DNA from: a virus
Direction: 5' to 3' (one strand)
Length of the DNA: 64,000 bases
IMG/VR virus record: IMGVR_UViG_3300029319_007985
Span: 96,001-160,000 of that record
Shown here: positions 28,476 through 61,255 of the stretch, one piece after another
Layout: every line of letters starts with the position of its first letter
Position numbering within the stretch: the stretch's first letter is position 1
The notes under the pieces: generated by a model
What the model saw: the letters and a program-made list of their open reading frames with translations, nothing else
What the model was told of the DNA's origin: nothing
The model's database searches: none
Made by a program: the position numbers and the translations under genes

Positions 28476-29213
28476 ATGATAGATATCTTGAAAGACATTG
28501 TCAAGCACACGCATGGACTTGGATTCCTCGATCTTGTTAAAATTACTGGTACCAGTGATTCAACTGCTATTGATTCAATGGCAGAGGACAGATCAGTTAT
28601 CCTGCAAGGATCTTTTCACAAACCACAATCAGGTATGATAGGAACTTTTGGTATGCCTCAGTTGAATAAACTAGATATACATTTAAAATGTCCGGAATAC
28701 AAAGATAAGGCAAACATATCCGTAATGACTGGAACCAGAAATGGTGCAGAAACACCAACAGGTATACACTTTGAAAATGAAAAAGGTGATTTCAAGAATG
28801 ATTATAGATTTATGAATGCCGAGATTATTAACGAAAAACTTAAAACTGTAAAATTTAAAGGTGTTAAGTGGGACGTTGAGATCGAGCCTACAGTGGCAAG
28901 TGTACAAAGATTCAACTTTCAATCAGTAGCAAACACAGAACACAATTCTTTTGTTGTAAGAACAGAGGATGGTAACCTGATATTCACTTTTGGTGATCAA
29001 TCATCACATGGTGGTGAATTTGTATTTGCAAAAGACGTGAAAGGAACTCTTAATAAAGGATGGAGTTGGCCGGTAGCACAGGTATTACAGATATTGAAAC
29101 TTTCTGATTCTGCAAAAGTAACACTACATTTTTCCAATGAAGGAGCAATGCAGGTTACAGTAGACTCAGGACTAGGCAAATATCAGTATATTATTCCAGC
29201 GCAGGCGCAGTAA
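28476..29213 (+). CDS. Sliding clamp (gp45/PCNA-like)
   Basis: 245 aa, clamp-like alpha/beta pattern, C-terminal YQYIIPA, next to the polymerase. Confidence 0.65.
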   Translation: MIDILKDIVKHTHGLGFLDLVKITGTSDSTAIDSMAEDRSVILQGSFHKPQSGMIGTFGMPQLNKLDIHLKCPEYKDKANISVMTGTRNGAETPTGIHFENEKGDFKNDYRFMNAEIINEKLKTVKFKGVKWDVEIEPTVASVQRFNFQSVANTEHNSFVVRTEDGNLIFTFGDQSSHGGEFVFAKDVKGTLNKGWSWPVAQVLQILKLSDSAKVTLHFSNEGAMQVTVDSGLGKYQYIIPAQAQ

Positions 29214-30655
29214 TGACAGATAAAAGGCAAGAACATTTAGGAGAGTACAGCAGAGACTTTGCGGTGTTCTTGCCTGCTATTTCAAACTTTTACAATACTT
29301 TCATTAGCAAACAAAGGGTTACTGAGGGCACCCACATACCAGCAGAAAGAATACCAAAAGGATTGGACAGAGGAGTCGAAGGATTAAACTTTATCAATCC
29401 TGAACAAGGATATTTCACATATCCAACAGCATTATATTCGGCAGGACACGCCTGTTTAGATATGGATAAAACAGCAGACAGAGATTCAATGTGTGTCAAT
29501 CGAGACAGAAAGTTTTCAACGATTATTGGTGACTCAGGTGGATATCAGATAGGAAAAGGTGTTATTAAATTTGATTGGAAAGATTTTGAAGGAAATAAAG
29601 CAAACAAAGTAAGGTCAGATATTTTAAATTGGTTGGAACTTACAAGCGATTGGGCAATGACCTTAGACGTGCCAACTTGGGCGGCAGACGATTTGAATTC
29701 ACCAAAAACAGGACTAAAAAGTTTTCAAGATACATTGGACGGCACAATTTACAATAATAAGTTTTTCCAAAAAAATAGACTAGGACAGACCAAGTTATTA
29801 AACGTGTTACAAGGTGATGATTGGGAAACAGCACAAATTTGGTATGACAAAGTAAAAGATTTTGAATTTGAAGGTTGGGCAATGGGCGGAATCAACATGT
29901 GTGACATGGAGGTTATGTTAAAAAGGCTAATCATAATGAGAGATGAAAAGAAACTGGATGGTAAAGACTGGATGCACGTACTAGGCACGTCACAACTTGA
30001 TTGGGCATGTTTCTTAACACAGGTACAAAGACAGGTTCGAAAGAATATCAATGACAAATTTACTATTAGTTTTGATAGTGCGTCAGCATTTTTATCAACC
30101 GCAAATGGACTTGTGTACACGCACAACTTGTTTACTCCAAAAAGATGGAGTTACATAATGGAGAAGGCACCAGATGACAAGAGACTAAAAGGATCAACTA
30201 TTCCGTTTCCTTTCAAGTCAGCAATAGGAGAAAGACTAATACTTGGAGATGTTTGTGCTTATGGTGAAGGGGATCTAAACAAAAACAATAAAGAGGGCAA
30301 AACAAGTTGGGATAGTTTTAGTTACTGCTTGATGATGGCCCATAATGTTTACAACCATATAAGAGCGGTGCAAATTGCAAATGACTTGAATGACATTGAG
30401 ATGATCAAACATAAACCACAGGTAAAACACTGGAGAAAGACTAAGGATTCGGACAACACAGATGAACCAAGTGACTTTGTTCCACGAAATATTTTATATT
30501 TCAACACACTTGTGGAAGAAGTGTTCACAAGTGAAAAGCCAATGGATGTAATAAACAATGCCAGTAGTTTCCTTGCTGACATACGTGGCACTAGATGGGC
30601 AAGGGCCACAGGCGGTGGAAAAGGCAAAAACAACTTTAGCAGTCTATTCGAATAG
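29213..30655 (+). CDS. dpdA: TGT-fold 7-deazaguanine DNA transglycosylase (DpdA-like)
   Basis: DSGGYQ, MTLDVP, NVLQG, GWAMGG, HVLG, FDSAS and HNV motifs; no TGT Zn site; folE and queE nearby. Confidence 0.8.
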   Translation: MTDKRQEHLGEYSRDFAVFLPAISNFYNTFISKQRVTEGTHIPAERIPKGLDRGVEGLNFINPEQGYFTYPTALYSAGHACLDMDKTADRDSMCVNRDRKFSTIIGDSGGYQIGKGVIKFDWKDFEGNKANKVRSDILNWLELTSDWAMTLDVPTWAADDLNSPKTGLKSFQDTLDGTIYNNKFFQKNRLGQTKLLNVLQGDDWETAQIWYDKVKDFEFEGWAMGGINMCDMEVMLKRLIIMRDEKKLDGKDWMHVLGTSQLDWACFLTQVQRQVRKNINDKFTISFDSASAFLSTANGLVYTHNLFTPKRWSYIMEKAPDDKRLKGSTIPFPFKSAIGERLILGDVCAYGEGDLNKNNKEGKTSWDSFSYCLMMAHNVYNHIRAVQIANDLNDIEMIKHKPQVKHWRKTKDSDNTDEPSDFVPRNILYFNTLVEEVFTSEKPMDVINNASSFLADIRGTRWARATGGGKGKNNFSSLFE

Positions 30656-30664
30656 GAGGATAAA

Positions 30665-30877
30665 ATGGTAAAAGTTAAAAACAAGAAACTAAAAAAATTA
30701 TTGTATGAAAAGAATTGGTTAGATAAAAAAGTTGCCGAACTAACCAAAGATCGGAAAAAAGATAGAAGTTGGGACGCCAAAGCAACTTTGGTAAGATTAA
30801 AAAAACAAAAACTGAGATTGAAGGAAGAAATAACAAGACTAGCAAACAAATTGGGCAGTTTAACAAAACTAAAGTAA
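30665..30877 (+). CDS. Small basic coiled-coil protein (DUF465-like)
   Basis: RLKKQKLRLKEEI motif; AGGAGG SD. Confidence 0.6.
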   Translation: MVKVKNKKLKKLLYEKNWLDKKVAELTKDRKKDRSWDAKATLVRLKKQKLRLKEEITRLANKLGSLTKLK

Positions 30878-30878
30878 A

Positions 30879-30906
30879 TTGACAAAATGTTTTTCTATGT
30901 TATAAT
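30879..30906 (+). promoter_or_regulatory. Sigma70-like promoter with extended -10
   Basis: TTGACA-N16-TATAAT with TGn; ATG 6 nt downstream. Confidence 0.7.
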
Positions 30907-30912
30907 AGGCTT

Positions 30913-31458
30913 ATGTTAAGAGATTATTCTACAGGCTTCAAAGAAGATGTGAATGTTTTTTCAGGTATTGAAATAGAACACACTCCGGCATATGGTAAAC
31001 AAACACTTTTCCTTGCACGTAACGATCTTACTTTTGATCAAATACAAAGTTTGGCCGTGGCCGCTGATGCAGAAGCAATATACTATGGAGCAAATAGGTC
31101 CTATATGCACAGTCACGCGATGCAGTTGGCTCAAATACATCAATTGTTAGACAGAGGATACTGGGTAACTGTTGATTACCCATTTGAATTACATCAATTG
31201 GTTGCCAAGAAGTTTAGCACGTGCTGGAGAAAGGAAAGATTTATTCCATTCTGCTCTATCATATTTCCACACACAGAAGAAGATGACAATTTGTGTTTCA
31301 AAGTAGACGATGTAGATTTTAACAAAACAAATCCTGGTGTTTGGAGCATGACTATGAAAGATTTCAAAGACAAAGCAGGATTTACTAAATGGGAAGAATA
31401 CAAACAAGATGAACCAATAACAGAGGACAAAATATGGCCAGCACCACAGAAAGCGTAA
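30913..31458 (+). CDS. Hypothetical protein in the deazaguanine cluster
   Basis: 181 aa ORF overlapping the dpdL-like gene. Confidence 0.75.
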   Translation: MLRDYSTGFKEDVNVFSGIEIEHTPAYGKQTLFLARNDLTFDQIQSLAVAADAEAIYYGANRSYMHSHAMQLAQIHQLLDRGYWVTVDYPFELHQLVAKKFSTCWRKERFIPFCSIIFPHTEEDDNLCFKVDDVDFNKTNPGVWSMTMKDFKDKAGFTKWEEYKQDEPITEDKIWPAPQKA

Positions 31459-31898
31459 TTGATCAGATGTATAACATACCTGAGCAACAACAAGAACAAG
31501 CATTGAAAGAAAAAGCCGGAAAGGCGGCAAAAATGATATGGGTGACCTTTCAAAAAGAAGGTATGCACAAATACCCTGCGGCACTAGATGATCCAAAATT
31601 AAAGACAGGAGATGAGTACGATGTTAGTTTCTTAGGATATCCACACAGACACATATTTCATTTCAAAGTGGCAATAGAAGTATTCCACGATGACAGAGAC
31701 ATTGAATTTATACAGTTTAAAAGATGGCTCCTTAATTTGTACAAGGACGGCACTATACAAAGCGACTTTAAAAGTTGTGAAATGATGAGTGATGACCTAT
31801 ACATTGCAATCACAAAAAAATATCCAGGTAGACGCATAGAAATAGATGTATCAGAAGATGGTGAAAACGGATCACACGCAGTATATGAAAGAACTTAA
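31434..31898 (+). CDS. QueD-paralogous T-fold protein, DpdL-like
   Basis: LGYPHRHIF matches LxxxHRHxF instead of QueD CxxxHGH; SCEM and VSEDGENG T-fold motifs. Confidence 0.65.
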   Translation: MASTTESVIDQMYNIPEQQQEQALKEKAGKAAKMIWVTFQKEGMHKYPAALDDPKLKTGDEYDVSFLGYPHRHIFHFKVAIEVFHDDRDIEFIQFKRWLLNLYKDGTIQSDFKSCEMMSDDLYIAITKKYPGRRIEIDVSEDGENGSHAVYERT

Positions 31899-32205
31899 GA
31901 TAAAAGAAAAGAGAGCAACTACTAGGAAAGGATATCTACCGATAGGTGGTGGTGGACTAAATGCCAGTTACACATTTGTAGATGCAGTAGCCAACGTATG
32001 TTCCACAATGGGTAACATGGGTCTTGTGTACGGCAAGGATTATTTCTGGGCGTATCACGGCTACGACGATGACATGGATGATTGTATTACTCTTATGGTG
32101 AAGAATGAAAAATACTCAACTGCCTTGCATCTTAAATTAAGAAACGATCATAAAATAAAACACACTAAAGATGGTGATGTAAAACTTGTAAAGGAGACAG
32201 TGTAA
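31885..32205 (+). CDS. Hypothetical protein
   Basis: ORF; start uncertain (31846 or 31885). Confidence 0.65.
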   Translation: MKELKIKEKRATTRKGYLPIGGGGLNASYTFVDAVANVCSTMGNMGLVYGKDYFWAYHGYDDDMDDCITLMVKNEKYSTALHLKLRNDHKIKHTKDGDVKLVKETV

Positions 32206-32516
32206 TGAACATACGTGTGATGTTTGAACCTAAACCAGGAGTTAAGTGCAACGTAGATAAAATGTTTCAATACTATGGTGAAAACTATCTAAGTGACTTT
32301 CCTGAATTCAAATTTGGTGGATACATTATGTTGAACACACTAGAACACAAGTTCAATGACGCCATCTCCGGAGAGCCGTTTTATCAATTCGTTGCTAGTG
32401 ACGTTTCAAAGCACACTTTGGATAAAATTACGCATTATGTAAAAGGCAATCCCATGGAGGGATATCATGCCCATGTACATTATTCAGAAAATGGTGAAAA
32501 CGAAAAGGCCTACTAA
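32205..32516 (+). CDS. Hypothetical protein
   Basis: TAATG coupling to the upstream gene, with SD. Confidence 0.7.
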   Translation: MNIRVMFEPKPGVKCNVDKMFQYYGENYLSDFPEFKFGGYIMLNTLEHKFNDAISGEPFYQFVASDVSKHTLDKITHYVKGNPMEGYHAHVHYSENGENEKAY

Positions 32517-32559
32517 AACATATAATTTTGTAGTCCTGTAGATTTTATCTAAATACCGT

Positions 32560-33708
32560 ATGTCAAAAAGACTCCTAGATAAAAACTTTTGTGTTATACC
32601 ATGGACAGGCTTTGAATTAGAGCCTAATGGGCATGTAAGGAACTGTATTATCAGTAAGGACAAAATAGGCAATATCTACAGAAACAACATCCAAGATATT
32701 TTACAAAGTAATACAAAAATAAAAGAAGAAATGCTGAATGGAAAATATCCTTCTAGTTGTGATGGATGTTTTCTACAAGAAAAACACAGGGCAAAAGATT
32801 TTGAATCGATTAGCAGTCGTTTGTATTATGCGAAAGAGATAGGACCGTCTATATCAACAACACTATTTGATAGCAAAAACAATTTTGATTTGAAACACGT
32901 TGATCTACGTTGGTCCAATGCGTGTAACCAAGCATGTGTTTACTGTCATCCTGACTACAGTAGCAAATGGGCCACTGAACTTAATAAAAAAATTCCACAT
33001 GATCAAGAACAAATCCAGCAGGTAAAAGAATATGTTTTTAAAAATGTAAAAAATTTAAAAAACGTTTACCTAGCAGGAGGTGAGCCAATGTTAATGAAAC
33101 CTAATCAAGAGTTTCTTGAACTTCTTTATAAAGAAAATCCAAACGTAAACTTAAGGATCAACACCAACCTCAGCAAAACAAATACTAGAATTTTTGAACA
33201 ATTGTGTAAGTTTGAAAACGTGCATTGGACCGTTAGTATAGAAACTATAGAAGAAGAATATGAATATGTCAGGTATCATGGAGACTGGACAGCATTTTTA
33301 GAAAATTTGAAAGTGATAAAAAAATTACCACATAAAATAAGTTTCAATATGCTTTACTTCATTTTGAATTACAGAAGTCTCTTTGGTTGCGTAAATTACC
33401 TACAGAATTTAGGATTTCATAACAACAGTTTTGTGATTGGTCCATTGTTTACTCCGCCGCATTTGAATATTTTGAATTTACCTAAACAAATTTTAAACCA
33501 ACTTAGAGAATTACTCAAAGAGAAAATTAATGAAAAACCAGGCTTCCTACTTGAAAACAGTTACCAAAATCTACTTCAATATTTGACTGAAACCAAGTTC
33601 TATGCTAATATAGATGTAACAAAGAGAGAATTAGAAAAAATGGATAGAAGAAGAAATTTGGACAGCAAAAAAGTGTTTCCTAAACTGTATCAAGAGGTGC
33701 TTAATTAA
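32560..33708 (+). CDS. Radical SAM protein with N-terminal SPASM/twitch-like Cys cluster
   Basis: CNQACVYC, AGGEP and N-terminal FCVIPW...NC...CDGC motifs. Confidence 0.88.
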   Translation: MSKRLLDKNFCVIPWTGFELEPNGHVRNCIISKDKIGNIYRNNIQDILQSNTKIKEEMLNGKYPSSCDGCFLQEKHRAKDFESISSRLYYAKEIGPSISTTLFDSKNNFDLKHVDLRWSNACNQACVYCHPDYSSKWATELNKKIPHDQEQIQQVKEYVFKNVKNLKNVYLAGGEPMLMKPNQEFLELLYKENPNVNLRINTNLSKTNTRIFEQLCKFENVHWTVSIETIEEEYEYVRYHGDWTAFLENLKVIKKLPHKISFNMLYFILNYRSLFGCVNYLQNLGFHNNSFVIGPLFTPPHLNILNLPKQILNQLRELLKEKINEKPGFLLENSYQNLLQYLTETKFYANIDVTKRELEKMDRRRNLDSKKVFPKLYQEVLN

Positions 33709-34874
33709 TGAAAATATTCTACATGGGCCTTGAACCATACGAAGGCCGATATACTCTGCAGTTGACAGATTGGACTGAACGTGCTTTTAAAAAAGCAGGC
33801 GTAGAATATGTGATAGTGCCTGGCACAACAATAGATGATAGTAAAGCAATAGTTACAGGACAAGTTTTAGATGCACATGGTAGAAGTTATTTTGGAATGA
33901 GCCAAATGATGAATTTGGTTCAAATGATGAAAGCAGGAGAAGTCACGTCCAAGGACATAATATTTTTTGAAGACATGTTTCAGCCTGGAATGGAGGCTCT
34001 GCCTTATATACTTCAGCAAAGTCCAGAAAAATATAGACCTGCAATATACCTAAGATGTTTAGCACAATCAATTGACCCAGATGATTTTGTGCATGTATGG
34101 GGTATGAGCAAATGGATGAGTCTCTATGAAGAGATGTGCAACGAGATTCCAAATGTCAATATACTTGCCAGTAACGAAGAGATGGTTGCCAATATGAGAA
34201 TAGCCAATTGGAAGGCACCTATATACAATATTTCAGGACTAAGTTTTGGAAAAGAAGAAGTGCAATCAAGAGTAGAACAAAAACCATTCATTGAAAGGAA
34301 ACAAAGAGTCGTATTTGGAGCAAGATGGGATCAAGAAAAACAGCCACAATTTTTTATGGACTTGGTGCAGGCATATAAAAAGAAACATCCAGACACAGAA
34401 TTTGCAATATGTTCAGGTGGTCCATTAAGGTCCAATAACAAATACTATGTTGATGAAGCAAGATACCTTGCTAAAGAAGGCATACTAACAATACATGAAA
34501 ACTTGAAAAAAGATGAGTACTATAGCATACTTGCTGACTCAAGAGTTTTATTCAATTGCGCTTTACAGGATTGGACTTCTAACACAGTGAGTGAAGCGGA
34601 TGCCTTAGGCGCGAATGTATTGTTTCCGGCATACAGGTCTTTCCCGGAAGTTTTTGCAAATGACGAAACAAGAATGTACATACCATGGTCACAAAAGGAC
34701 GCAATTAAAAAACTAGAAACACTAATGAGCAAACCATCCCCTAGTATGGGTCAAATATCAGATTGGACAGATGGCACAATCGATAGAATGTTAGACATCA
34801 TGACAGGCAAGGGCGAACAATGGAGAAGAGATGGATCACACTACAGAACACCAGTATCCGAAAAAAAATATTAA
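33708..34874 (+). CDS. GT-B (family 4-like) glycosyltransferase
   Basis: RWDQEKQP, LQDWTSNTVSEADALG and PAYRSFPE donor-binding motifs. Confidence 0.8.
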   Translation: MKIFYMGLEPYEGRYTLQLTDWTERAFKKAGVEYVIVPGTTIDDSKAIVTGQVLDAHGRSYFGMSQMMNLVQMMKAGEVTSKDIIFFEDMFQPGMEALPYILQQSPEKYRPAIYLRCLAQSIDPDDFVHVWGMSKWMSLYEEMCNEIPNVNILASNEEMVANMRIANWKAPIYNISGLSFGKEEVQSRVEQKPFIERKQRVVFGARWDQEKQPQFFMDLVQAYKKKHPDTEFAICSGGPLRSNNKYYVDEARYLAKEGILTIHENLKKDEYYSILADSRVLFNCALQDWTSNTVSEADALGANVLFPAYRSFPEVFANDETRMYIPWSQKDAIKKLETLMSKPSPSMGQISDWTDGTIDRMLDIMTGKGEQWRRDGSHYRTPVSEKKY

Positions 34875-35868
34875 CAACATAAACAAAGCAGTTCTTGTTG
34901 TTGGTGGAGCAGGTTATATTGGATCACATATTAGCAAACATCTTGCAAAAAATGGATATACCCCGGTCATACTCGACAGAAATGTAAAAGATAATTTTAT
35001 CTCACAAAAATTTAGTGATGTGTATGAAATCAATTTGCCCAGAGACATACATCTGCTTGACGATATTATCAAAAGATACAATATAGATTGCTGTATACAT
35101 ACGGCGGCGTACACGTCCGTAGGCAAATCCGTAAAACAGCCTGATTCATATTATCAAAACAATGTTGTAATGACTCTACAACTTTTAAACAAACTGAAAG
35201 AATTAGATGTAAAAAAGTTTATCTTTAGTTCAAGTGCCGCAGTTTATGGAGTGCCCAAGGATGGTGTGTGTTTTGACACTGAAAAAAACTTGGATCCAAT
35301 CAATCCTTACGGAACAACAAAATTAATCGTTGAGAAAATGCTGAGAGAATACAATACTGCTTATGGTATATCAAGCATTAGTTTTAGATACTTCAATGCC
35401 GCCGGCGCTGATAGGGATGGAGACATTGGAGAAATGCATGATCCAGAAACGCACATTATTCCAATTATAATCAAGGCAGGATTTCAGGCGAAAGAATTCA
35501 ACATGTTTGGCACTGACCATGATACACCAGATGGAACCTGCGTCAGAGATTATATCCATGTTGATGACATCGCAGAAGCACACATAAAAGCAATGGCATT
35601 ACTCGACAGCAATATTTGTGAAGCAATAAATCTAGGATCCGGGACAGGCTTCAGCAATAAACAAATTGTAGATGAAGTGGCAAAGCACACAGGGGCAATA
35701 AAAGTCATTGATGCTCCGAGACGTGCTGGAGATCCACCACAACTTATTGCAGATATAACAAGATCAAAGGAACTATTAAATTGGAAACCAATTCACAGTA
35801 GCATTGACAACGTGGTTCGAACTGCTGTACAATGGTATAAGACTATCAATAAAAAGGAAATAAACTAA
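34831..35868 (+). CDS. galE: UDP-glucose 4-epimerase
   Basis: GGAGYIGSH, FSSSAAVYG, PYGTTK, RYFNAAGA and DGTCVRDYIHV motifs. Confidence 0.92.
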   Translation: MDHTTEHQYPKKNINNINKAVLVVGGAGYIGSHISKHLAKNGYTPVILDRNVKDNFISQKFSDVYEINLPRDIHLLDDIIKRYNIDCCIHTAAYTSVGKSVKQPDSYYQNNVVMTLQLLNKLKELDVKKFIFSSSAAVYGVPKDGVCFDTEKNLDPINPYGTTKLIVEKMLREYNTAYGISSISFRYFNAAGADRDGDIGEMHDPETHIIPIIIKAGFQAKEFNMFGTDHDTPDGTCVRDYIHVDDIAEAHIKAMALLDSNICEAINLGSGTGFSNKQIVDEVAKHTGAIKVIDAPRRAGDPPQLIADITRSKELLNWKPIHSSIDNVVRTAVQWYKTINKKEIN

Positions 35869-36578
35869 TGGACGAATTAAAAGACAGTTGGGCACCAGTA
35901 GGACCGGTAAGCGAAAAAATCAAAAAAAGAATAAAAGAAGCAAAAGCAAGATATCATGCCAATGACAATATTTCCGAATTTATAAAAGAAGGCGAACTTG
36001 AACAACTGCAAAATGAGGTCCAAGACAAAATGAAATCATTGCTGAGCAGTCTTGTTATTGACACTGAAAATGATCATAACACACAAGACACTGCAAAACG
36101 TGTTGCCAAGATGTGGATAAAGGAAGTATTCGGGGGAAGATATAATCCATTCCCGAGAGTTACAAGTTTTCCAAACATGGGATACAAAAGCATGTACACC
36201 TCTGGACCAATATCTATTCGGTCAACATGTGCCCACCACTTCCAAAATATTGTTGGAAATGCTTGGATAGGGATTATTCCAAACGGTGAGGTAATTGGTT
36301 TGAGTAAGTTCAATAGAATAGTGCACCATATAGCAGAACGTCCACAGATTCAAGAAGAAATGACAACTCAGATTGCAGAGGCACTCCAAGAGTATGCACA
36401 TACAAAAAACATAGCGGTGGTTGTAAAAGCAGAACATCACTGTATGACACACAGAGGCGTGAGAGAGCATGAAAGCGACATGACAACAGCAATAATGTTA
36501 GGCGCTTTCAAAGAAGACCCTGCAACCAGAGATGAATTTTACAAGATTTGCATGAGCATGAAAGGTCATGGTGGATAA
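35868..36578 (+). CDS. folE: GTP cyclohydrolase I
   Basis: TAKRVAKMW, STCAHHF, IGLSKFNR, PQIQEE and HHCMTHRGV motifs. Confidence 0.95.
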   Translation: MDELKDSWAPVGPVSEKIKKRIKEAKARYHANDNISEFIKEGELEQLQNEVQDKMKSLLSSLVIDTENDHNTQDTAKRVAKMWIKEVFGGRYNPFPRVTSFPNMGYKSMYTSGPISIRSTCAHHFQNIVGNAWIGIIPNGEVIGLSKFNRIVHHIAERPQIQEEMTTQIAEALQEYAHTKNIAVVVKAEHHCMTHRGVREHESDMTTAIMLGAFKEDPATRDEFYKICMSMKGHGG

Positions 36579-36789
36579 AAAAACAAAAGAAAATTGGGAA
36601 ACTTTTGAAAGTTGGATTCCAAGTGACTCATACATGTATGGTGGTATGACAGAATCGGTTACGGTACAAGGTGAACTATTTGATCCAGACCAAGAACTTA
36701 AAGAAAAATATCCAGCATTGAAGAAAGCCTGGAAACAATATCAAATTATAAAAAAATTATGTGAGGCAAAAGAAAATGAGACTAGATAG
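36568..36789 (+). CDS. Hypothetical protein
   Basis: 73 aa ORF; EKYPALKKAW. Confidence 0.65.
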   Translation: MVDKKTKENWETFESWIPSDSYMYGGMTESVTVQGELFDPDQELKEKYPALKKAWKQYQIIKKLCEAKENETR

Positions 36790-37825
36790 TGAACCTAAAC
36801 TTAATTTTGAAGACGTGTTGTTGAAACCTAAACGTTCTACTCTTTCAAGCAGGAAGGATGTAGATATGACAAGAAAATTTACTTTTAGAAATTCAGGAAA
36901 GGTTATGGACTTCCTTCCTATTTTTGCAAGTAACATGGATGGTGTAGGTACTTTTAGCATGGCTAAAGAAATGCAAAAACACAAAATGATGACGGTAATA
37001 ACAAAGACAACAACAACTGAACAATGGAAAGAAGCAGTGGGTACTGGTTTAAGATTACAAAGTGTGTCAGTATGCACAGGCACAAACAAAATGTTTGATA
37101 AAGAAGCGTCCGATTACAGAAACATGCAAGAGGTACTCAAAATGTTTCCTGATGTAAAGATGATTACCATAGACGTGGCAAACGCATATCATCAAAATTT
37201 TGTTGACTTTACAAAAATGGTCAGAGAGGAATATCCAGAAAAAGTAATTGTTGCCGGAAACGTTGTCACTCCAGAAATGGTCGAGGAGTTAATTATTAAT
37301 GGAGCAGACGTAGTAAAAATTGGAATAGGACCTGGATCTGTTTGCACGACTAGAACAATGACAGGGGTAGGGGTTCCACAATTCAGTGCTATCGTGGAGT
37401 GTTCAGATGCCGCAAACGGAGTTGGTGGTCATATCATGGCAGACGGTGGTTGTGTTTATCCAGGAGACATAGCAAAAGCATTTGGCGGAGGCGCTCATAT
37501 GGTAATGATCGGAGGAATGTTAGCAGGTCATGATGAATCTGAACAACCAGTGGTAGATGGTAAGATAGAATTTTATGGAATGAGTTCAGACCGTGCAAGA
37601 GAAGTCCATGGAAAAAGGAAAGATGGATATAGAGGAAATGAAGGTAGGTTAATAAGTTTACCATACAGAGGACCTGTCAACAACACATTAGAAGATATTC
37701 TGGGTGGAGTTAGAAGTGCCTGTACATATATAGGTGCAAGAAGATTAAAAGATATGGCAAAATGTGCAAGTTTTGTTCAAACTAACAATGTGATTAACAA
37801 AGTTTATGAGCAGTACACCAAATAA
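36776..37825 (+). CDS. guaC: GMP reductase
   Basis: LNFEDVLLKPKRSTL.SR, SNMDGVGTF, GIGPGSVCTTR and FYGMSS motifs. Confidence 0.93.
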   Translation: MRLDSEPKLNFEDVLLKPKRSTLSSRKDVDMTRKFTFRNSGKVMDFLPIFASNMDGVGTFSMAKEMQKHKMMTVITKTTTTEQWKEAVGTGLRLQSVSVCTGTNKMFDKEASDYRNMQEVLKMFPDVKMITIDVANAYHQNFVDFTKMVREEYPEKVIVAGNVVTPEMVEELIINGADVVKIGIGPGSVCTTRTMTGVGVPQFSAIVECSDAANGVGGHIMADGGCVYPGDIAKAFGGGAHMVMIGGMLAGHDESEQPVVDGKIEFYGMSSDRAREVHGKRKDGYRGNEGRLISLPYRGPVNNTLEDILGGVRSACTYIGARRLKDMAKCASFVQTNNVINKVYEQYTK

Positions 37826-38267
37826 AAGTTATTTCTCAAATTTACAGATGCGAAACGCATTAGTGCAGATCGAAGATCAAATGGTGCACTCCAATTGGAT
37901 GCCTGACCTAATAATGGGCATAAATCGAGGTGGATGCATTCCTGGTGTTTATCTCAGCCATAGACTAAAGAAAGAACACTTGGTATTAGATATCAGATTA
38001 CGAGATCATAAAGCGACTCCGGATCTGTCAGTGTTAACAAAGCAGTACGCTTTCCAAAGAAAAATTTTGATCATAGATGACATCAATGATACCGGTGCCA
38101 CTTTCAAATACATAGAAGAGAATTTTGGTAGACCTGACAGAGTTAAATTTGCCGCATTAATTAATAACCAACCAAGCGAAGTAACAGTTGATTACCATGG
38201 ATACCAAATAGATAAATCAAAAGATCCTGCCTGGATTGTTTTTCCATGGGAAGAGTGGCAAAAGTAA
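37806..38267 (+). CDS. Type I phosphoribosyltransferase (xanthine/guanine PRTase-like)
   Basis: GINRGG, LIIDDINDTGAT and WIVFPWE motifs. Confidence 0.85.
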   Translation: MSSTPNKSYFSNLQMRNALVQIEDQMVHSNWMPDLIMGINRGGCIPGVYLSHRLKKEHLVLDIRLRDHKATPDLSVLTKQYAFQRKILIIDDINDTGATFKYIEENFGRPDRVKFAALINNQPSEVTVDYHGYQIDKSKDPAWIVFPWEEWQK

Positions 38268-38280
38268 ACTAAAGAGTGTA

Positions 38281-38309
38281 TAGACACTTATCCATTATTA
38301 TTGTATAAT
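38281..38309 (+). promoter_or_regulatory. Sigma70-like promoter for the NCS2 permease
   Basis: TAGACA-N17-TATAAT, then AAGGAG SD. Confidence 0.65.
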
Positions 38310-38335
38310 TTTTAGATGTTAACAAAGGAGATAAC

Positions 38336-39625
38336 ATGTTAGAAAAACTCTTTGGTTTGACAAAAGCCGGGACTTCAGTGAAAACTGAAATCATGGCCGG
38401 AGTCGCCACTTTCCTAACAATGGCTTATATCACGGTAGTAAATCCTGCAATCTTAAGTACTGAAGGTTCGGGAATGGATTTTGGCGCTGTATTCACAGCG
38501 ACAATTATTGCCGCTGTAATAGGAACATTGATAATGGGACTATGGGCCAATTGGCCGATAGCACTTGCACCAGGTATGGGACTAAATGCGTTCTTTACAT
38601 TTGGTGTAATATTTGGAATGGGTTATACATTTTCTCAGGCCTTGGCCGCTGTATTTGTGGCAGGGGTAGTGTTTATCGTTTTGTCGGTGACACCAGCGAG
38701 AAAATATATTATCAACTCTATTCCAAAAAGTATGAAACTAGGCGTTGGAGCCGGTATAGGATTATTCCTTGCCATCATAGGTTTTAAGAACGCTGGTATT
38801 GTAGTGGATCATCCTGCTACATTAGTTGGACTTGGTGATATTTCAAGTTGGCCTGTTTTATTAGCAGGCGCAGGTTTTGCCACAATGGCAATACTTGATA
38901 GAAGAAAGATCCCAGGTGCAATAATAATTGGAATCTTAGCAGTCTCAGTGATTGCTTGGGTCTTTGGTATATCTGATCTAAAAGGTGTAGCCGGTGCTAT
39001 TCCAAGTCCTGCACATGCGTTCAGTTTAGACTTTAGTCTAATTGCTACTGCAGGTTTCATTGGTACTGCGTTTGCATTCTTGTTTGTGGACTTTATGGAC
39101 ACAGCAGGAACTTTGACTTCAGTTGCTAACCTTACTGGTAAAGTAAACAAAAGCGGCGAAGTGGAAGGCATTGACAGAGCATTGCTATCTGATTCGGTAG
39201 CAACAACTGTTGGAGCACTTGCAGGTACTTCTAACACTACTTCTTACATAGAAAGTGGTGCTGGAGTAAAAGAAGGCGGTAGAACAGGTTTGACAGCGGT
39301 AACAGTGGCGGTGCTATTTTTAGCCTGCTTATTCTTTGCCCCGCTGGCACAGAGTATACCTAAGTTCGCCACTGCACCAGCACTTATATTCATTGCAACC
39401 TACTTCTTGAGAAACCTCAAGGACATCGATTGGGATGATGTGAGTGAGTATGCACCTGCCGTATTAGCGGCGGTGATCATGCCATTAACTTTCAGTATTG
39501 CCTATGGTATTGCGATAGGTTTTATTGCTTATGTTGTAATCAAAGCATTAAGCGGTAAACAATCACAATTGAACAAAGGTAGTATTGCAATAGCGGCAGT
39601 AAGTTTAGTTTACTTCGCTGTATAA
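38336..39625 (+). CDS. NCS2/AzgA-family purine (guanine/hypoxanthine/adenine) permease
   Basis: EIMAGVATFLTMAYI, APGMGLNAFF, DFMDTAGT and YIESGAGV.EGGRTG motifs; many TMs. Confidence 0.93.
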   Translation: MLEKLFGLTKAGTSVKTEIMAGVATFLTMAYITVVNPAILSTEGSGMDFGAVFTATIIAAVIGTLIMGLWANWPIALAPGMGLNAFFTFGVIFGMGYTFSQALAAVFVAGVVFIVLSVTPARKYIINSIPKSMKLGVGAGIGLFLAIIGFKNAGIVVDHPATLVGLGDISSWPVLLAGAGFATMAILDRRKIPGAIIIGILAVSVIAWVFGISDLKGVAGAIPSPAHAFSLDFSLIATAGFIGTAFAFLFVDFMDTAGTLTSVANLTGKVNKSGEVEGIDRALLSDSVATTVGALAGTSNTTSYIESGAGVKEGGRTGLTAVTVAVLFLACLFFAPLAQSIPKFATAPALIFIATYFLRNLKDIDWDDVSEYAPAVLAAVIMPLTFSIAYGIAIGFIAYVVIKALSGKQSQLNKGSIAIAAVSLVYFAV

Positions 39626-39631
39626 TCATTA

Positions 39632-39650
39632 GGGGGACTTTTTGTCCCCC
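39632..39650 (+). terminator. GC-rich hairpin after the permease gene
   Basis: GGGGGAC-TTTTT-GTCCCCC; no clear U-tract follows. Confidence 0.5.
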
Positions 39651-39677
39651 CATTGACAAATCTTCTAAATACTTCAT

Positions 39678-40610
39678 ATGCATTACCTAATATTGACTCC
39701 GGATGGTGTTGGATCAACAATACTACAAAGATTACTGACTGTAAGTTTACATTTACAAAATAAAAAAGTAGTAAACACACACGAACTAACTAACGGATTG
39801 GAACTTACAAAAAGCCTTGTGAGGAAAAACCCTAGCATAGGTTATAAACAATCTTTAAAAGAGATTGAAAGTCTTTTGCAAAAAAATGATGAAGAAACAA
39901 GACTTGTTAGCAGATTAGCAAAATATCATATAGATAAAAGACAAGACAACTCTGCTGATCAATATGAATTTTATAATTTTTTGAACAATTTTTTCCACAC
40001 GAAAATTATGTGTGTGAGGAAAAATATTTTCGAATATGCAATGAGTTGGAGTATTAGGAAAAAATCAGGTGTACTCAATGTATATAATAAAAAAGACAAG
40101 GAAAAAGTTTTACAAGTTACAGATGTAGATGAAGAATATTTTTTAAAAAAATGTATGGATTACGTAAACTATGTTAAATGGATTGAAAAGTATTTTAAAA
40201 ATGTCAAGGTAATTTCCTATGAAGACATGCTAATCGAAAGTGATAAGGTTATTGCGGAACTTACTAATAACAACAAAACTTTTGAAAGCAATTTTGGAGT
40301 AACATGCAGTAATATCATTAAAAAAGAATATGAACTTTTCAATTTTCTATCTAACAAAAATTTAAAACACAATATTAGCAGGAAAGAGCAAAAAGCAATA
40401 CTATTATATAAAAAAGTTGGTAATGAATTAATTAAAAAAAATATCATACATTCGTTACCAATTAAGAACACAACATTGACTGATAAACAGAAACAGATAA
40501 AAAATTTTCAAACATGTCTAAACAAATTTTACAAATTTGCTAAAAACCATAACTGGATAGATCAAAGCAATGCAACTTATGATTTTTGGAATAAAACGCA
40601 CATATGCTGA
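39678..40610 (+). CDS. Sulfotransferase-like P-loop protein
   Basis: LTPDGVGSTILQR, VRKNIFEYAMSW and ISYEDM pattern. Confidence 0.5.
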   Translation: MHYLILTPDGVGSTILQRLLTVSLHLQNKKVVNTHELTNGLELTKSLVRKNPSIGYKQSLKEIESLLQKNDEETRLVSRLAKYHIDKRQDNSADQYEFYNFLNNFFHTKIMCVRKNIFEYAMSWSIRKKSGVLNVYNKKDKEKVLQVTDVDEEYFLKKCMDYVNYVKWIEKYFKNVKVISYEDMLIESDKVIAELTNNNKTFESNFGVTCSNIIKKEYELFNFLSNKNLKHNISRKEQKAILLYKKVGNELIKKNIIHSLPIKNTTLTDKQKQIKNFQTCLNKFYKFAKNHNWIDQSNATYDFWNKTHIC

Positions 40611-41290
40611 AAATACAGAATAAAATAAACTTAAATCAAAAAACAAGCGGTATGGACACTTACAAATGGTGCCGTAATAAAAATTATTTCAAAAACTATA
40701 AAAAAGAAATTTCATACTCGTATAACAGTAAAGGTTTCAGAGATAAAGAATGGCCTAAAGATTTATCAGAGGCGATTTGGTGTGTTGGAGATAGTTTCAC
40801 AGTGGGTATGGGACAGCCTTTCAATGAAACTTGGCCACAGTTATTGGAAAGAGCCACTGGTAAGAGATGTATAAATGTTGCTGAAGATGGATGTAGTAAT
40901 GATGTTATATCCAAAAGGATCAAAAAAATCCATCAACTTTACAAGCCTAAATGGATTGTGGTAATGTGGTCTTACCTGCACAGAAGACAGGACAAACATT
41001 ATGACAAAACAGATTTTGGTTTAAAAGAAGACTTAAAAAATTTTAAAAAAAATTATGACATCGCACAATTATGCAACTCAAATATCATACATCTTTTAAT
41101 TCCAGATGCTATTATTGAAAACACCAAAAGACAAAAATATTTTTTTAAGAAACACGGTGTAAAAAACATACATTGTTTTAGTCAAATAGATTACGGAAGA
41201 GATTACCAGCATTTTGGTTTAAAAACAAGTAAAAAAATATGTTCTTTAATTGTAAAAAAAATAAAAGACTTTGACAAAAGACCTAAATAA
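40604..41290 (+). CDS. SGNH hydrolase-like protein
   Basis: NSKGFRD, VGDSFTVG and DYQHFG motifs. Confidence 0.7.
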   Translation: MLKIQNKINLNQKTSGMDTYKWCRNKNYFKNYKKEISYSYNSKGFRDKEWPKDLSEAIWCVGDSFTVGMGQPFNETWPQLLERATGKRCINVAEDGCSNDVISKRIKKIHQLYKPKWIVVMWSYLHRRQDKHYDKTDFGLKEDLKNFKKNYDIAQLCNSNIIHLLIPDAIIENTKRQKYFFKKHGVKNIHCFSQIDYGRDYQHFGLKTSKKICSLIVKKIKDFDKRPK

Positions 41291-41299
41291 TAATATAAT
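41271..41299 (+). promoter_or_regulatory. Sigma70-like promoter
   Basis: TTGACA-N17-TATAAT; ATG 6 nt downstream. Confidence 0.7.
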
Positions 41300-41305
41300 A
41301 ATACT

Positions 41306-41497
41306 ATGGCAAAAAAACAAGCAAAAGGATTATCACTTAGGATTTCACTCGATGAATACGAGGCCTTGCGAGAACAAGCAAAAATAAATGACAAGGTAAT
41401 AACAGATCCAGATTTAATAAACACGATTGATAAAATCGAAGAACTAGTAGCAAAATTAAGAAAGCGTATTGTTAGAAAGGATATCTACGAAGCATGA
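41306..41497 (+). CDS. Small hypothetical protein (RHH-like N-terminus)
   Basis: LSLRISLDEYEALREQA. Confidence 0.6.
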   Translation: MAKKQAKGLSLRISLDEYEALREQAKINDKVITDPDLINTIDKIEELVAKLRKRIVRKDIYEA

Positions 41498-41886
41498 GTA
41501 ATATAGCAGGAAAAATTTGGGGCCAAACAGAATTAATACACAAAAATGGTGTTCTAGAATTCCACAGGATAGACTATAAAGCAGGATACAAATGTTCTGA
41601 ACACGAACACAAATATAAATGGAATGGATTCTTTGTTGAATCAGGGAAAATGCTTGTAAGAGTATGGCAAGACGATCAAGGTCTTGTAGATGAAACAATT
41701 TTGAATGCAGGAGACTTCACACAGGTTAAGCCAGGTAAAGTGCATCAGTTTGAAGGACTTGAAGATGGTGTTGCTTTTGAACTGTATTGGGCAGAGTTCA
41801 ACCACGATGACATTGTGAGAAGGACTTCAGGCACAGTTGTTGATAACAAGGTTGTTAGACTAGATACAAAAAAATCTAAGAAATAA
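41494..41886 (+). CDS. Cupin-fold protein
   Basis: SEHEH...FFVESG and VKPGKVHQF motifs. Confidence 0.75.
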   Translation: MSNIAGKIWGQTELIHKNGVLEFHRIDYKAGYKCSEHEHKYKWNGFFVESGKMLVRVWQDDQGLVDETILNAGDFTQVKPGKVHQFEGLEDGVAFELYWAEFNHDDIVRRTSGTVVDNKVVRLDTKKSKK

Positions 41887-42038
41887 TGACCGAAGAAGAG
41901 TACTTGCAAACTTTTGTTCGAGAATACAAAGAAGAAATCGAATCAGAAAAAGAAAAAGCACGTCAAGAAAAAATAAGGCAAGGTAAATTTACCATTGAAG
42001 AAATACTACAAGCGATAGATGAAATTTATAGTTCTTAA
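41886..42038 (+). CDS. 50-aa acidic protein (not in ORF track)
   Basis: MTEEEYLQTFVREYKEE...; TAATG coupling. Confidence 0.55.
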   Translation: MTEEEYLQTFVREYKEEIESEKEKARQEKIRQGKFTIEEILQAIDEIYSS

Positions 42039-42067
42039 TAGACAAAATTTACATAATCGTGTATAAT
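42039..42067 (+). promoter_or_regulatory. Sigma70-like promoter for queE
   Basis: TAGACA-N17-TATAAT; ATG 7 nt downstream. Confidence 0.65.
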
Positions 42068-42074
42068 AGTACAA

Positions 42075-42962
42075 ATGGACAAACTAAGATATTCGGAAAT
42101 ATTTTATAGTGTGCAAGGAGAAGGGCGTTTTGTTGGTGTGCCCAGTGTGTTCTTTAGGGTGTTTGGCTGTAACTTCAACTGCCATGGTTTTGGACAAGGC
42201 AGAGATGAATCAAAGTGGTTAAAGCCGGAAGAGATGCCATACATGACACAAGACTTGTCACACGTGAATCATGTGAGAGATTTGCCTGTGGTGGAGATAG
42301 GTTGTGATGCAAGTGCCAGTTGGAGTTCGAGATACAAACACTTGGTTGCTTGGGAATCGATCGACGACATCGCGAAAAAAATTACTGCGTACACGCCGAA
42401 CAAAAAATGGACAAATGACAACGGCACAGACATACACTTTATCATCACTGGCGGTGAGCCAATGTTGTGGCAAAGAGAAACGCAGATACTTCTAAGACAA
42501 AAAGAATTCAACAGTTTAAAAAACTTGACTATAGAAACAAACTGCACACAACCGTTCAAAGCAGGTTTCGATAAATTTTTACAAGGACTAGTAGCAGGAG
42601 ATTATACCAAAGAACCAGTACACATCACTTGGTCAACTTCGCCAAAATTATCAATATCGGGAGAAGACTGGGATAAAGCAATAAAGCCTGAGGTTGCCAA
42701 ACAATATTTTGATATACCCAACAGTCATTTGTATTTCAAGTTCGTAGTCCAGGATGAACAGGATCTAGCAGAGGTTGATAAGGCACGAGAAGAGTATAGC
42801 AAAGCAGGAGTTGATGCAGACATCTACTTAATGGCTGTAGGAGCAACTCAAGAAGGGCAGGCAAAAACAGCAAAGCAGGTGGCAGATGTGGCAATGAAGA
42901 ATGGATACAAGTATTCTCCAAGACTGCATGTTGATTTATTTGGTAATAAGTGGGGCACATAA
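42075..42962 (+). CDS. queE: 7-carboxy-7-deazaguanine synthase (radical SAM)
   Basis: EIFYSVQGEG, RVFGCNFNC...CD, ITGGEP, IETN, SPKL and SPRLH motifs. Confidence 0.88.
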   Translation: MDKLRYSEIFYSVQGEGRFVGVPSVFFRVFGCNFNCHGFGQGRDESKWLKPEEMPYMTQDLSHVNHVRDLPVVEIGCDASASWSSRYKHLVAWESIDDIAKKITAYTPNKKWTNDNGTDIHFIITGGEPMLWQRETQILLRQKEFNSLKNLTIETNCTQPFKAGFDKFLQGLVAGDYTKEPVHITWSTSPKLSISGEDWDKAIKPEVAKQYFDIPNSHLYFKFVVQDEQDLAEVDKAREEYSKAGVDADIYLMAVGATQEGQAKTAKQVADVAMKNGYKYSPRLHVDLFGNKWGT

Positions 42963-54936: not shown

Positions 54937-55252
54937 ACAAAGTTGGGTACAACTAGCACAAAATTTTGTTGATCAATGGCCCGAAGTGCTTGAAGGCATT
55001 GAACTAACCAACATGCCTATCCACTACGTGGATAGTGTGGCCATTATTTTAAAAAACCACATAACAATTACTGTAGATATTAAATCTTGCTTGAAAAAAA
55101 TGGGCAAGAAACAAACGGCCGCTATGTTAAAAACTTACATTACGAAACATTATAGTAAAATTAAAAACGTTGATCTTAAATTTAATGTAGGAAGATTGAA
55201 AACTGACATGACAAGTAAAACTGCATCAATATTGAACAAAACTTTTAAATGA
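54905..55252 (+). CDS. Hypothetical phage protein
   Basis: QWPEVLEGI motif. Confidence 0.7.
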   Translation: MPQKRKQPKNKQSWVQLAQNFVDQWPEVLEGIELTNMPIHYVDSVAIILKNHITITVDIKSCLKKMGKKQTAAMLKTYITKHYSKIKNVDLKFNVGRLKTDMTSKTASILNKTFK

Positions 55253-55890
55253 TAGATTTCACACAAAAATTTTTAATTTTGACAGCACATCCAGATGACT
55301 TGGAAATGTCTTGCGCAGGTACCGTCAAAAAAATCCATGCGAAAGGCGGCAGTGTAACCAACCTAATAATGGTTAGGCCAAATGTTGATGTGAGACCAAA
55401 TCGAAGTAAGGACAAAGTTTTAGACGAACTAAAGAATAGTTCAAAAATATTAGGACAAAAAGTAGATATCCATGATACACAAATATTTGAAAATGGGCGG
55501 CCTAACCTACAACTTACCAACAACTTGATTACCAAACTAGAAAATAAATTTAAAAACTTTGACGTTATTATTAGTCACTGGCACGAAGACTATCATCAAG
55601 ATCACAAAACTTGTTTTAACATAGCACAGATTTTGGCAAGGAAAAACTTCAAACAGTTTTTATGTTTTGATCAACCTACTTACAACCGTTTCTATAGTAA
55701 TTTTAACAAAAACATGTATGTAGATATTACTGACTACGTAGATGATAAAAGACAGGCACTAATGTGTTACGATACCTATTTTACAGATGCCGATATTGAT
55801 GCCATACTAGCATACAACAAATATAACGGATCATTTTTAGGACCTAATAAATTTGCAGAAACTTTTAATATGAGGTACTCGAAAATATGA
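55249..55890 (+). CDS. PIG-L/LmbE family N-acetylhexosamine deacetylase
   Basis: AHPDDLE and HQDH motifs. Confidence 0.88.
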   Translation: MIDFTQKFLILTAHPDDLEMSCAGTVKKIHAKGGSVTNLIMVRPNVDVRPNRSKDKVLDELKNSSKILGQKVDIHDTQIFENGRPNLQLTNNLITKLENKFKNFDVIISHWHEDYHQDHKTCFNIAQILARKNFKQFLCFDQPTYNRFYSNFNKNMYVDITDYVDDKRQALMCYDTYFTDADIDAILAYNKYNGSFLGPNKFAETFNMRYSKI

Positions 55891-56888
55891 AGATTTTAAT
55901 TTTAGGCGGTTACGGATTTATTGGCAGTGCTATAAGCAGTCAATTAATTAAGCAAGGACACCAAGTTGGTGTAGTTGACTGTTTTCATCAGTATTATACT
56001 TTTCCAAATTGGGAATATGGACCTGTGTTGGCGCAGAGAAAAGCCATGGCAAATCCAACCAAAGATTACATTGGTAAGATTGAAGATGTTAGTTTTATGG
56101 AAAATGTTTTTGATGATTTTAAGCCACAGAGAGTTATACACGTTGCCACGTATCCAAATGCCAAAATGATACCGAGGAATGTTACAGATGCTACAACAAA
56201 CATGGTTACTGCAACCGCTTATGTGTTAGACCTTTGTGTAAAACATAAAGTTGAAAAGATAGTTTTTGCAAGTAGTAGCATGGTGTATGGTGAATTCAAT
56301 AATCAAGTTCCAGACGAAACTGTAACCCCAAATCCAAATACTTTATATGGATCATATAAAAAACAAGGTGAAATGATGTGTAAAATTTGGCATCGAGAAA
56401 AAGGACTTAACTACGTAATTCTTAGGCCAAGTGCGGTATATGGAACAGTGGACATGATCACACGGGTAGTGTCACAACTTACTAAAAGCAATCTCACAAC
56501 AGGAAAAATGATCGTGCAAGGTCCGGAAAATAAACTTGATTTTAGTAACGTGAAAGATGTGGCAACTTATTTTTGTCGAGCCACAACCAGTGAAGTAATT
56601 AATCAAACATTTAACATAACCAGAGGCAACGGCAGAAAACTTATCGAAGCCGCTGAAATAATCAAAGAAAGATTAGGATATGGCGAAATAGTGCTGAAGC
56701 CACATGATTCTTTCTATCCTAACAGGGACACTTTAAACAGCGACAAGGCAAAAACAATTTTTAATTTTGCACCTATTATTGATATCGAGCAGGGAATTCC
56801 AGATTACATTGATTGGTTTCTTGACCAACCTTTCTATCATGACAATTTAAATATTAATAAAAAGTTTCTTCTGGATACAACGATTTAA
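55887..56888 (+). CDS. NAD-dependent epimerase/dehydratase
   Basis: GGYGFIG, ASSSMVYG and YGSYK (YxxxK) motifs. Confidence 0.88.
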   Translation: MKILILGGYGFIGSAISSQLIKQGHQVGVVDCFHQYYTFPNWEYGPVLAQRKAMANPTKDYIGKIEDVSFMENVFDDFKPQRVIHVATYPNAKMIPRNVTDATTNMVTATAYVLDLCVKHKVEKIVFASSSMVYGEFNNQVPDETVTPNPNTLYGSYKKQGEMMCKIWHREKGLNYVILRPSAVYGTVDMITRVVSQLTKSNLTTGKMIVQGPENKLDFSNVKDVATYFCRATTSEVINQTFNITRGNGRKLIEAAEIIKERLGYGEIVLKPHDSFYPNRDTLNSDKAKTIFNFAPIIDIEQGIPDYIDWFLDQPFYHDNLNINKKFLLDTTI

Positions 56889-61097: not shown

Positions 61098-61255
61098 GCT
61101 CTATGATAAAAATTATCAACTTCCTTTTGTATTAATCCTTTTGCAAGTTTATTCGCTGATACTTCATCCATAGGCCCATATTCTTTTTTTGTTTTACTAT
61201 CCATAGTATCCATGTCATTTGGATCCTTGTGTATGCCCTCGATCACATAATACAT
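61079..61255 (-). CDS. 58-aa DUF4170-like protein (not in ORF track)
   Basis: MYYVIEG...EYGPM...VDNFYHRAWV. Confidence 0.45.
   Translation of the reverse strand: MYYVIEGIHKDPNDMDTMDSKTKKEYGPMDEVSANKLAKGLIQKEVDNFYHRAWVIKK

Follow-up and report, generated by a model that had tools for sequence, protein, structure and literature searches.

The closest described system to the locus reported here is that of the Cellulophaga phage phiST, whose DNA carries plain 2'-deoxy-7-deazaguanine (dDG) in complete replacement of deoxyguanosine (Cui, Hutinet et al., NAR 2023, PMC10516641). The phiST genes encode FolE, QueD, QueE, a DpdL with the motif LxxxHRHxF and a divergent DpdA, adjoin the DNA polymerase gene and include no QueC; neither a glycosyltransferase (GT) nor a sugar is mentioned in that study. 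A 2025 preprint describes full dDG substitution in vibriophage VP1 and makes no reference to a GT. Here we analyse a 64,000-nucleotide stretch of DNA from a large ocean phage not yet in culture (the window), bases 96001-160000 of the 172-kb IMG/VR record IMGVR_UViG_3300029319_007985, which is about 47% complete by CheckV. It contains a module (positions 29213-42962) that we interpret as a DpdL-type 7-deazaguanine DNA-modification system with a dedicated GT. The dDG pathway itself was already known from phiST; the GT within a DpdL-type module is new here.

Like phiST, the virus combines FolE, QueD, QueE, an LxxxHRHxF DpdL and a divergent DpdA next to a DNA polymerase gene, with no QueC in its about-47%-complete record, and the residues of DpdL that look catalytic are common to both. 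Unlike the window, phiST has no GT, no GalE and no counterpart of u181 (a conserved open reading frame (ORF) of the module), and its DpdA3 has 259 amino acids against 480. Because phiST makes plain dDG with DpdL and DpdA3 and without a GT, the GT is an addition to a pathway of the dDG type. The Pseudomonas jumbo phage PA5oct is a distant relative by its replication genes (46% identity for polB, 50% for RNase H and 40% for the DpdA-like protein), and a megablast search with the module region matched no related phage DNA. PA5oct DNA resists cutting at G-containing restriction sites, and a modified G was inferred in GA and/or GG motifs; the PA5oct study notes QueE- and PTPS-like genes and gives no chemical identity for the modification. 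Our literature search found no description of a glycosylated deazaguanine in DNA, nor of the GT module.

The gene that sets this module apart is linked to DpdL wherever it was evaluable. An earlier note on the window, made from the sequence alone, had suggested that the GT and the neighbouring UDP-sugar epimerase may glycosylate the inserted deazapurine or its precursor, had asked whether this GT family co-occurs with dpdA, dpdL and folE, and had reasoned that a GT occurring independently of dpdA would speak against the idea. We took 80 IMG/VR loci with a GT similar to that of the window and another 80 retrieved with a more remote family member, to which their GTs are 30-39% identical, and mapped them with family hidden Markov models built for the analysis, counting 135 non-redundant loci. 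In all of the 132 evaluable loci DpdL is at most 3.5 kb away from the GT; DpdA is found within 6 kb in 123 of 125, and FolE within 8 kb in 107 of 115 (QueE, 84 of 98). A GalE-type short-chain dehydrogenase/reductase (SDR) occurs no further than 3.5 kb from the GT in 97 of 121 loci and is directly adjacent in 77, these proteins forming one group at at least 45% identity. The GT was never seen without dpdL and dpdA. The co-occurrence is thus strong, and the linkage part of the note's suggestion stands, while its chemical part stays conditional below.

Cultured phages give the same picture. When 50,697 phage records were searched with the GT by tblastn, 7 records in five groups were returned, and in each the GT lies inside a deazaguanine cluster. 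The gene orders are DpdA-GT-DpdL...QueE in Paride (PA5oct/Paride), QueD-FolE-u181-DpdA-GT-DpdL-QueE in ACP17, FolE...GT-DpdA-DpdL-QueE in Xanthomonas phage X1 (X1/BUDD), QueD-DpdL...GT-446-aa ORF (probable DpdA, unconfirmed)...QueE...FolE in Burkholderia phage BCSR5, and QueE-PRT-QueD-FolE-GT2-DpdA-like-DpdL-GT in Synechococcus phage BUCT-ZZ01 (PRT, phosphoribosyltransferase). Sinorhizobium phage Phosso, in addition, has u181-DpdL-GT-FolE...QueE. The family GT of BUCT-ZZ01 is 68% identical to that of the window; this phage also encodes a second GT-like protein of 447 amino acids (L004:9004-10347) between FolE and the DpdA-like gene. A scan of 596 Gb of cellular genome contigs with a narrow degenerate DNA pattern, which finds only part of the GT family, yielded three true members, all on contigs of metagenome-assembled genomes (MAGs) and all adjoining DpdL. 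That the GT and DpdL stay together in at least ten different gene orders speaks for selection on their linkage, and we conclude that the GT is functionally tied to DpdL and DpdA. DpdL does occur without the GT, in phiST and its relatives, Rhizobium phage RHph_I1_18, Aeromonas phage Ahp1, and Vibrio phages D479 and Bakedbeans. In RHph_I1_18 an Appr-1-p (macro domain) protein follows DpdL at the usual place of the GT (L088:10402-11226).

The GT itself has a marginal Pfam match (PF00534; Table 1). Its AlphaFold2 model, built from a 32-sequence alignment reaching down to 30% identity, has a predicted local distance difference test score (pLDDT) of 93 and a predicted template modelling score of 0.91. 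The fold is the two-Rossmann GT-B fold of solved retaining GT4 enzymes, the best Foldseek matches among solved structures being glycogen synthase (2bis), BshA (5d01), MshA (3c48) and PimA (2gej), with E values from 1.5e-11 to 7e-11. R206 and K211 (R-x4-K) are invariant, and D288 and E296 (D-x7-E) are kept in at least 90% of members; we take the first to be the diphosphate-binding R/K pair and the second to be the E-x7-E motif of GT4/GT5 enzymes. R14, D89, D123, D126, W136 and E141 of the N-terminal acceptor domain are invariant too, and about 15 residues are invariant across the family. Judged from these residues and the model, the GT appears to be an active NDP-sugar transferase whose acceptor site is specific to the family. 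This family has many members: at least 7,973 close homologues, 855 representatives after 50% clustering of 1.84 billion proteins, and more than 580 IMG/VR loci. Of the matches of the GT in the viral structure library BFVD, only ranks 1 and 2 are close (E 8e-23 and 6e-16; an unnamed entry and the ACP17 protein), the rest being generic GT-B proteins. Among longer proteins no GT fusion was found, and the extra C-terminal region of the 655-residue member P0154 had no Pfam match.

Phage T4 alpha- and beta-glucosyltransferases are GT-B enzymes that transfer hexose from UDP-hexose onto 5-hydroxymethylcytosine in DNA. The window GT would resemble them as a phage GT-B enzyme using UDP-hexose to decorate a non-canonical base against restriction. 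T4, however, modifies a hydroxymethyl pyrimidine, whereas the pathway here leads to a purine analogue, and the window GT resembles retaining GT4 enzymes rather than the T4 families, its likeness to viral DNA GTs being generic to the GT-B fold (a cyanophage 'DNA alpha-GT' stands at rank 30 of its BFVD matches, E 3e-8). No source for a T4-type handle was found: PF00303 had no match in the about-47%-complete record, with positive controls, and only an ordinary ThyX was present, in agreement with the note's remark that no hydroxymethylase was visible. A search of the record for Tet/JBP proteins (PF12851) also found nothing, although its control was silent too. Nearer in function are QTMAN and QTGAL of animals, which add a hexose to queuosine (Q), a 7-deazaguanine derivative, in tRNA (PMC12518689). 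They are likened to the GT by function and not by sequence: in both cases the sugar would be placed on a 7-deazaguanine derivative inserted by an enzyme of the tRNA-guanine transglycosylase (TGT) family. The cyclopentenediol of Q, however, provides a hydroxyl acceptor, whereas the phage pathway has no genes for this side chain.

The window DpdL carries LGYPHRHIF, which fits LxxxHRHxF, the signature in place of CxxxHGH by which DpdL was defined (Cui et al. 2023, PMC10516641). The whole protein can be aligned with the DpdL of phiST (CGPG_00067) and the ACP17 homologue, HRH, SCE and EDGENG being common to all; its identity is 55% with the ACP17 homologue, 31% with phiST DpdL and 38-73% with GT-linked DpdLs. 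The earlier note had linked DpdL to decarboxylation of 7-carboxy-7-deazaguanine (CDG). This holds as a published proposal but not as a proven function, the decarboxylase role being predicted rather than demonstrated (PMC10516641). When dpdL and dpdA of phiST or ACP17 were expressed in E. coli, dDG was not obtained, and the authors suggest that further enzymes may be needed (PMC10516641).

Enzymes for making CDG are encoded in the record. The best NCBIfam models for FolE are NF006824 (186 bits, cut-off 202) and TIGR00063 (164.6 bits, cut-off 181.6), each falling slightly short, and the N-terminal signature of QueE matches several QueE models of the same library. A canonical QueD, reported missing from the window by the note and indeed absent there, is present in the record 24 kb upstream (G000:C1:71555-71953; 61 bits against a cut-off of 22.4). 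The absence of queC and queF noted for the window extends to the whole 172-kb record, in which searches that were positive in control genomes found no match to QueC, QueF, the Pfam TGT family or the ThyA family; since the record is about 47% complete, the absence of QueC applies to the record and not to the whole genome. No QueC over the cut-off was found in six complete GT-bearing cultured genomes (Paride, ACP17, BUCT-ZZ01, X1, BCSR5 and Phosso), X1 having a single sub-threshold match of 16 bits. Two complete 363-kb metagenomic relatives with terminal repeats encode a divergent QueC-like PP-loop ORF (PF06508, 33 and 31 bits; L175:1042-1698 and L176:1090-1698) more than 100 kb from the module. 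The match covers mainly the C-terminal zinc region, and the ORF has no homologue in the window's record. A transporter for queuosine precursors, of the YhhQ family (TIGR00697, 94.7 bits, cut-off 50.95; L070:16898-17680), is encoded downstream of the module in 28 related loci; it is absent from the window.

The DpdA-like protein has no match in Pfam, PHROGs or NCBIfam, or in the PDB by phmmer. In an alignment of 25 homologues DSGGxQ (D107-Q112), QG, HxLG and D288 are invariant, the first of which we take to be the hallmark of TGT enzymes. Against the annotated queuine tRNA-ribosyltransferase homologue of phage X1, hhalign gives 98.3% probability (E 2e-14), and a profile search of the PDB gives a weak, sub-threshold match to QTRT1 at the DSGG motif only. 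The PA5oct-family protein to which it is 40% identical adjoins the GT there. On these motifs and profile comparisons the protein is assigned as a DpdA. Because its likeness to the short phiST DpdA3 is marginal (hhalign probability 31%), no DpdA subfamily is given. Its tail, NNFSSLFE (30600-30655), resembles the polB tail TFNKLFQF (27565-27594) and may be a peptide that docks on the sliding clamp. The pattern F-x-x-[LIMF]-F is seen in 48 of 67 distinct polB tails, in 15 of 82 DpdA tails (those of the window's clade) and in none of 115 GT tails. A prediction of a DpdA-GT complex scored 0.01 ('no answer') and is evidence neither way.

We propose that the GT adds a sugar (a hexose) to a deazaguanine-derived base, a reading to which we give about an even chance. 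Gene identities, the fold and motifs of the GT and its linkage to DpdL and DpdA are observed; from them we infer what accepts the sugar and what donates it, how the steps follow one another and which base results, each step being assigned from family membership. At first, FolE and QueE, with the QueD encoded outside the window, would make CDG from GTP, and DpdL would convert it onward, by decarboxylation to 7-deazaguanine in the published proposal. The divergent DpdA would then, probably at the replisome, replace guanine in the phage DNA by the deazapurine. The GT, supplied with UDP-hexose by the phage GalE, would put the sugar on the deazaguanine-derived base, either once the base is part of the DNA or while it is still free; UDP-galactose is the natural guess for the donor. 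GMP reductase, the phosphoribosyltransferase and the permease would recycle or import purine against the drain on GTP. That a true GalE usually stands beside the GT points to bulk use of UDP-hexose, as would be needed to decorate a genome of roughly 360 kb one base after another. The sugar may be attached as a C-glycoside at the nucleophilic pyrrole carbon, as an ester of CDG, at the exocyclic nitrogen, or on a side chain made by u181 or other enzymes.

Three observations from other systems count in favour of glycosylation: dpdL and dpdA of ACP17, which also carries the GT, gave no dDG in E. coli, where the authors suspected missing enzymes; PA5oct carries the module and has a chemically undefined G modification; and QTMAN and QTGAL provide a precedent. 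Several points weigh against it. 7-Deazaguanine has no hydroxyl or amine at C7, so that the attachment point is not obvious, and a C-glycoside, an ester of CDG or a link to the exocyclic nitrogen would each be unusual. The final base of the GT-bearing phages is predicted from sequence, and the role of DpdL as a decarboxylase is itself a proposal (PMC10516641). The 135 loci are not independent events, because they come mostly from related aquatic phages; independence rests on roughly ten distinct gene orders and lineages. The QueC-like ORF of the 363-kb relatives means that the precursor may differ among lineages. Finally, an acidic GT whose GT4 neighbours mostly act on small molecules fits a free base or metabolite as acceptor at least as well as DNA.

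The last point leads to the possibility, which we consider unlikely, that the GT works on a small molecule, making a glycosylated pterin or deazapurine metabolite, or a transient sugar handle or carrier for the DpdA substrate, with plain dDG as the final base. Cyanobacteria make biopterin glucoside from the FolE/PTPS pathway. The UDP-glucose:tetrahydrobiopterin alpha-glucosyltransferase 5ze7 is, like the window GT, a GT-B enzyme, and acts on a product of FolE and a T-fold PTPS; together with BshA, MshA, LmbT and SenB it belongs to the structural neighbours of the GT. Its match (rank 45, E 2e-9), however, is non-specific, being no better than dozens of other GT4 matches, and 5ze7 has no link to DpdA or QueE and makes a soluble pterin. 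Conserved Asp, Glu and aromatic residues mark the acceptor domain of the GT, and its acidity would suit a small acceptor (median isoelectric point 5.7 for the family and 4.8 for the N-domain), but the isoelectric point is uninformative on DNA binding because the DNA-binding DpdA family is equally acidic. The failed ACP17 reconstitution would make an extra step before insertion plausible, yet phiST makes dDG without a GT. Moreover, the GT is strictly linked to DpdA and DpdL and not to FolE and QueD alone, and the phage GalE points to bulk sugar use.

It is rather improbable that the DNA carries plain dDG while the GT and GalE serve an unrelated target (a different DNA base, a protein of phage or host, or glycans of the host envelope) and merely share the early replication neighbourhood. 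The absence of an obvious handle on dDG would fit such a separation, as would the frequency of auxiliary GTs in phages and the separate sugar-tailoring cluster of the window (55249-63320), and shared ancestry of the loci inflates the co-occurrence counts. But the association with DpdL was kept through repeated shuffling of gene order across unrelated phage groups, and a GT away from DpdL was never found in the 160 viral loci, the seven cultured groups or the MAG contigs; a pyrimidine handle would in turn call for a hydroxymethylase, for which the searches of the record described above were empty. Scarcely credible is a GT-like protein that serves DpdA as a non-catalytic DNA- or base-binding accessory, in a role like that of DpdB in bacterial Dpd systems: its gene is translationally coupled to that of DpdA in ACP17 and in the PA5oct family, and its Pfam score is weak, both of which would allow it, but R-x4-K, D-x7-E and the other invariant residues are kept across the family, a dedicated GalE is usually adjacent, and phiST DpdA3 needs no such partner gene.

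All genes named in the earlier note are present at their positions on the + strand, as are all genes of the module, which polB and a clamp-like gene directly precede (Table 1). The chain of overlapping ends described for 32560-36578 was likewise found: radical S-adenosylmethionine (SAM) gene and GT meet in TAATG, GT and GalE overlap by 44 nt, and GalE and FolE by 1 nt.

Table 1. Genes of the deazaguanine module, with positions in the window.
Feature	Position	Strand	Basis
DpdA-like protein, TGT superfamily, divergent, 480 aa	29213-30655	+	TGT motifs and hhalign
u181, conserved ORF of the module, enzyme-like	30913-31458	+	homologues in related loci
DpdL-type T-fold protein (QueD paralogue)	31434-31898	+	LGYPHRHIF; phrog_17812, E 4e-33
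Two small ORFs, 119 and 103 aa	31846-32516	+	no family matches
N-twitch radical SAM protein	32560-33708	+	NF033640, 256.8 bits (cut-off 170)
GT-B glycosyltransferase, GT4-type retaining	33708-34874	+	PF00534 (Glycos_transf_1), 27.4 bits (gathering threshold 26.4)
GalE, UDP-glucose 4-epimerase	34831-35868	+	TIGR01179, 336.9 bits (cut-off 262.3)
FolE, GTP cyclohydrolase I	35868-36578	+	PF01227, E 5e-49
GMP reductase, xanthine/guanine-type phosphoribosyltransferase, NCS2 permease	36761-39625	+	family matches
Four poorly characterised ORFs	between permease and QueE		
QueE, 7-carboxy-7-deazaguanine synthase	42075-42962	+	phrog_2076, E 2e-53, full length

The remaining genes of the module are less constant. 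Gene u181 is found no more than 4 kb from the GT in 93 of 112 evaluable loci and has homologues in ACP17 and Phosso, where the annotation is 'glycosylase'. It has 24 invariant residues, including ExE, GAN, KxDD and NPGVW, and an AlphaFold2 model with pLDDT 88, for which no convincing fold match was found (Foldseek against the PDB, best E 0.13; VIA, Z at most 6.3; ESM Atlas, no usable match). Partial barrel-like VIA matches, including one to QueE, were dropped, all being under the meaningful level. The two small ORFs, u119 and u103, recur in 40 and 14 of 141 related loci and match no family in Pfam, PHROGs or NCBIfam. The N-twitch radical SAM protein, which the note had counted in the cluster, is present and its gene overlaps the GT gene, but it is an optional rather than a core member, lying near the GT in 18 of 95 evaluable loci; we know of no substrate for NF033640. 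GMP reductase (NF003470, 455.7 bits against 397), a weakly XPRT-like phosphoribosyltransferase and a permease matching PF00860 look like a purine import and recycling trio that feeds GTP into the deazaguanine pathway. The trio fits bulk base exchange, because GTP is the precursor and each exchange releases guanine; the phosphoribosyltransferase occurs in 70 and the GMP reductase in 50 of 141 related loci.

Further sugar-related genes were seen in the window and its relatives. The cluster at 55249-63320 encodes a PIG-L deacetylase, an SDR epimerase/dehydratase, a DegT-type sugar aminotransferase, a NodU/CmcH-type carbamoyltransferase, a weak HhH-GPD-like ORF and a second N-twitch radical SAM paralogue. 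This cluster may provide the GT with a tailored sugar or have an unrelated role. Near the GT in 29 loci there is a cytidylyl/adenylyltransferase-like domain fused to a mannose-6-phosphate-isomerase-type cupin (L120:8893-9837), which suggests other sugar-nucleotide supplies in some lineages.

To our knowledge, all known sugar hypermodifications of DNA are on hydroxymethyl- or hydroxy-pyrimidines, and the known phage purine replacements (deazaguanines and 2-aminoadenine) carry no sugar. If the proposed role of the GT is true, natural DNA would have a further class of base, the glycosylated deazapurine, and with it the first purine analogue known to bear a sugar in any DNA. This would account for the failure to reconstitute dDG with the ACP17 genes alone, would identify the G modification of the therapeutic jumbo phage PA5oct, and would offer a new substrate for studies of restriction, CRISPR and glycosylase-based defence. 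We think it somewhat short of an even chance that the virion DNA of a large, globally abundant group of aquatic phages, together with PA5oct, ACP17, X1, BCSR5, Phosso and BUCT-ZZ01, carries glycosylated 7-deazaguanine, possibly linked as a C-glycoside at C7 or as a CDG ester, and with tailored sugars in some lineages. Sequencing of the carrier phages could then be biased, and the question is directly testable because several carriers are cultured. Given the size of the GT family, the modification would be common in marine and freshwater viromes.

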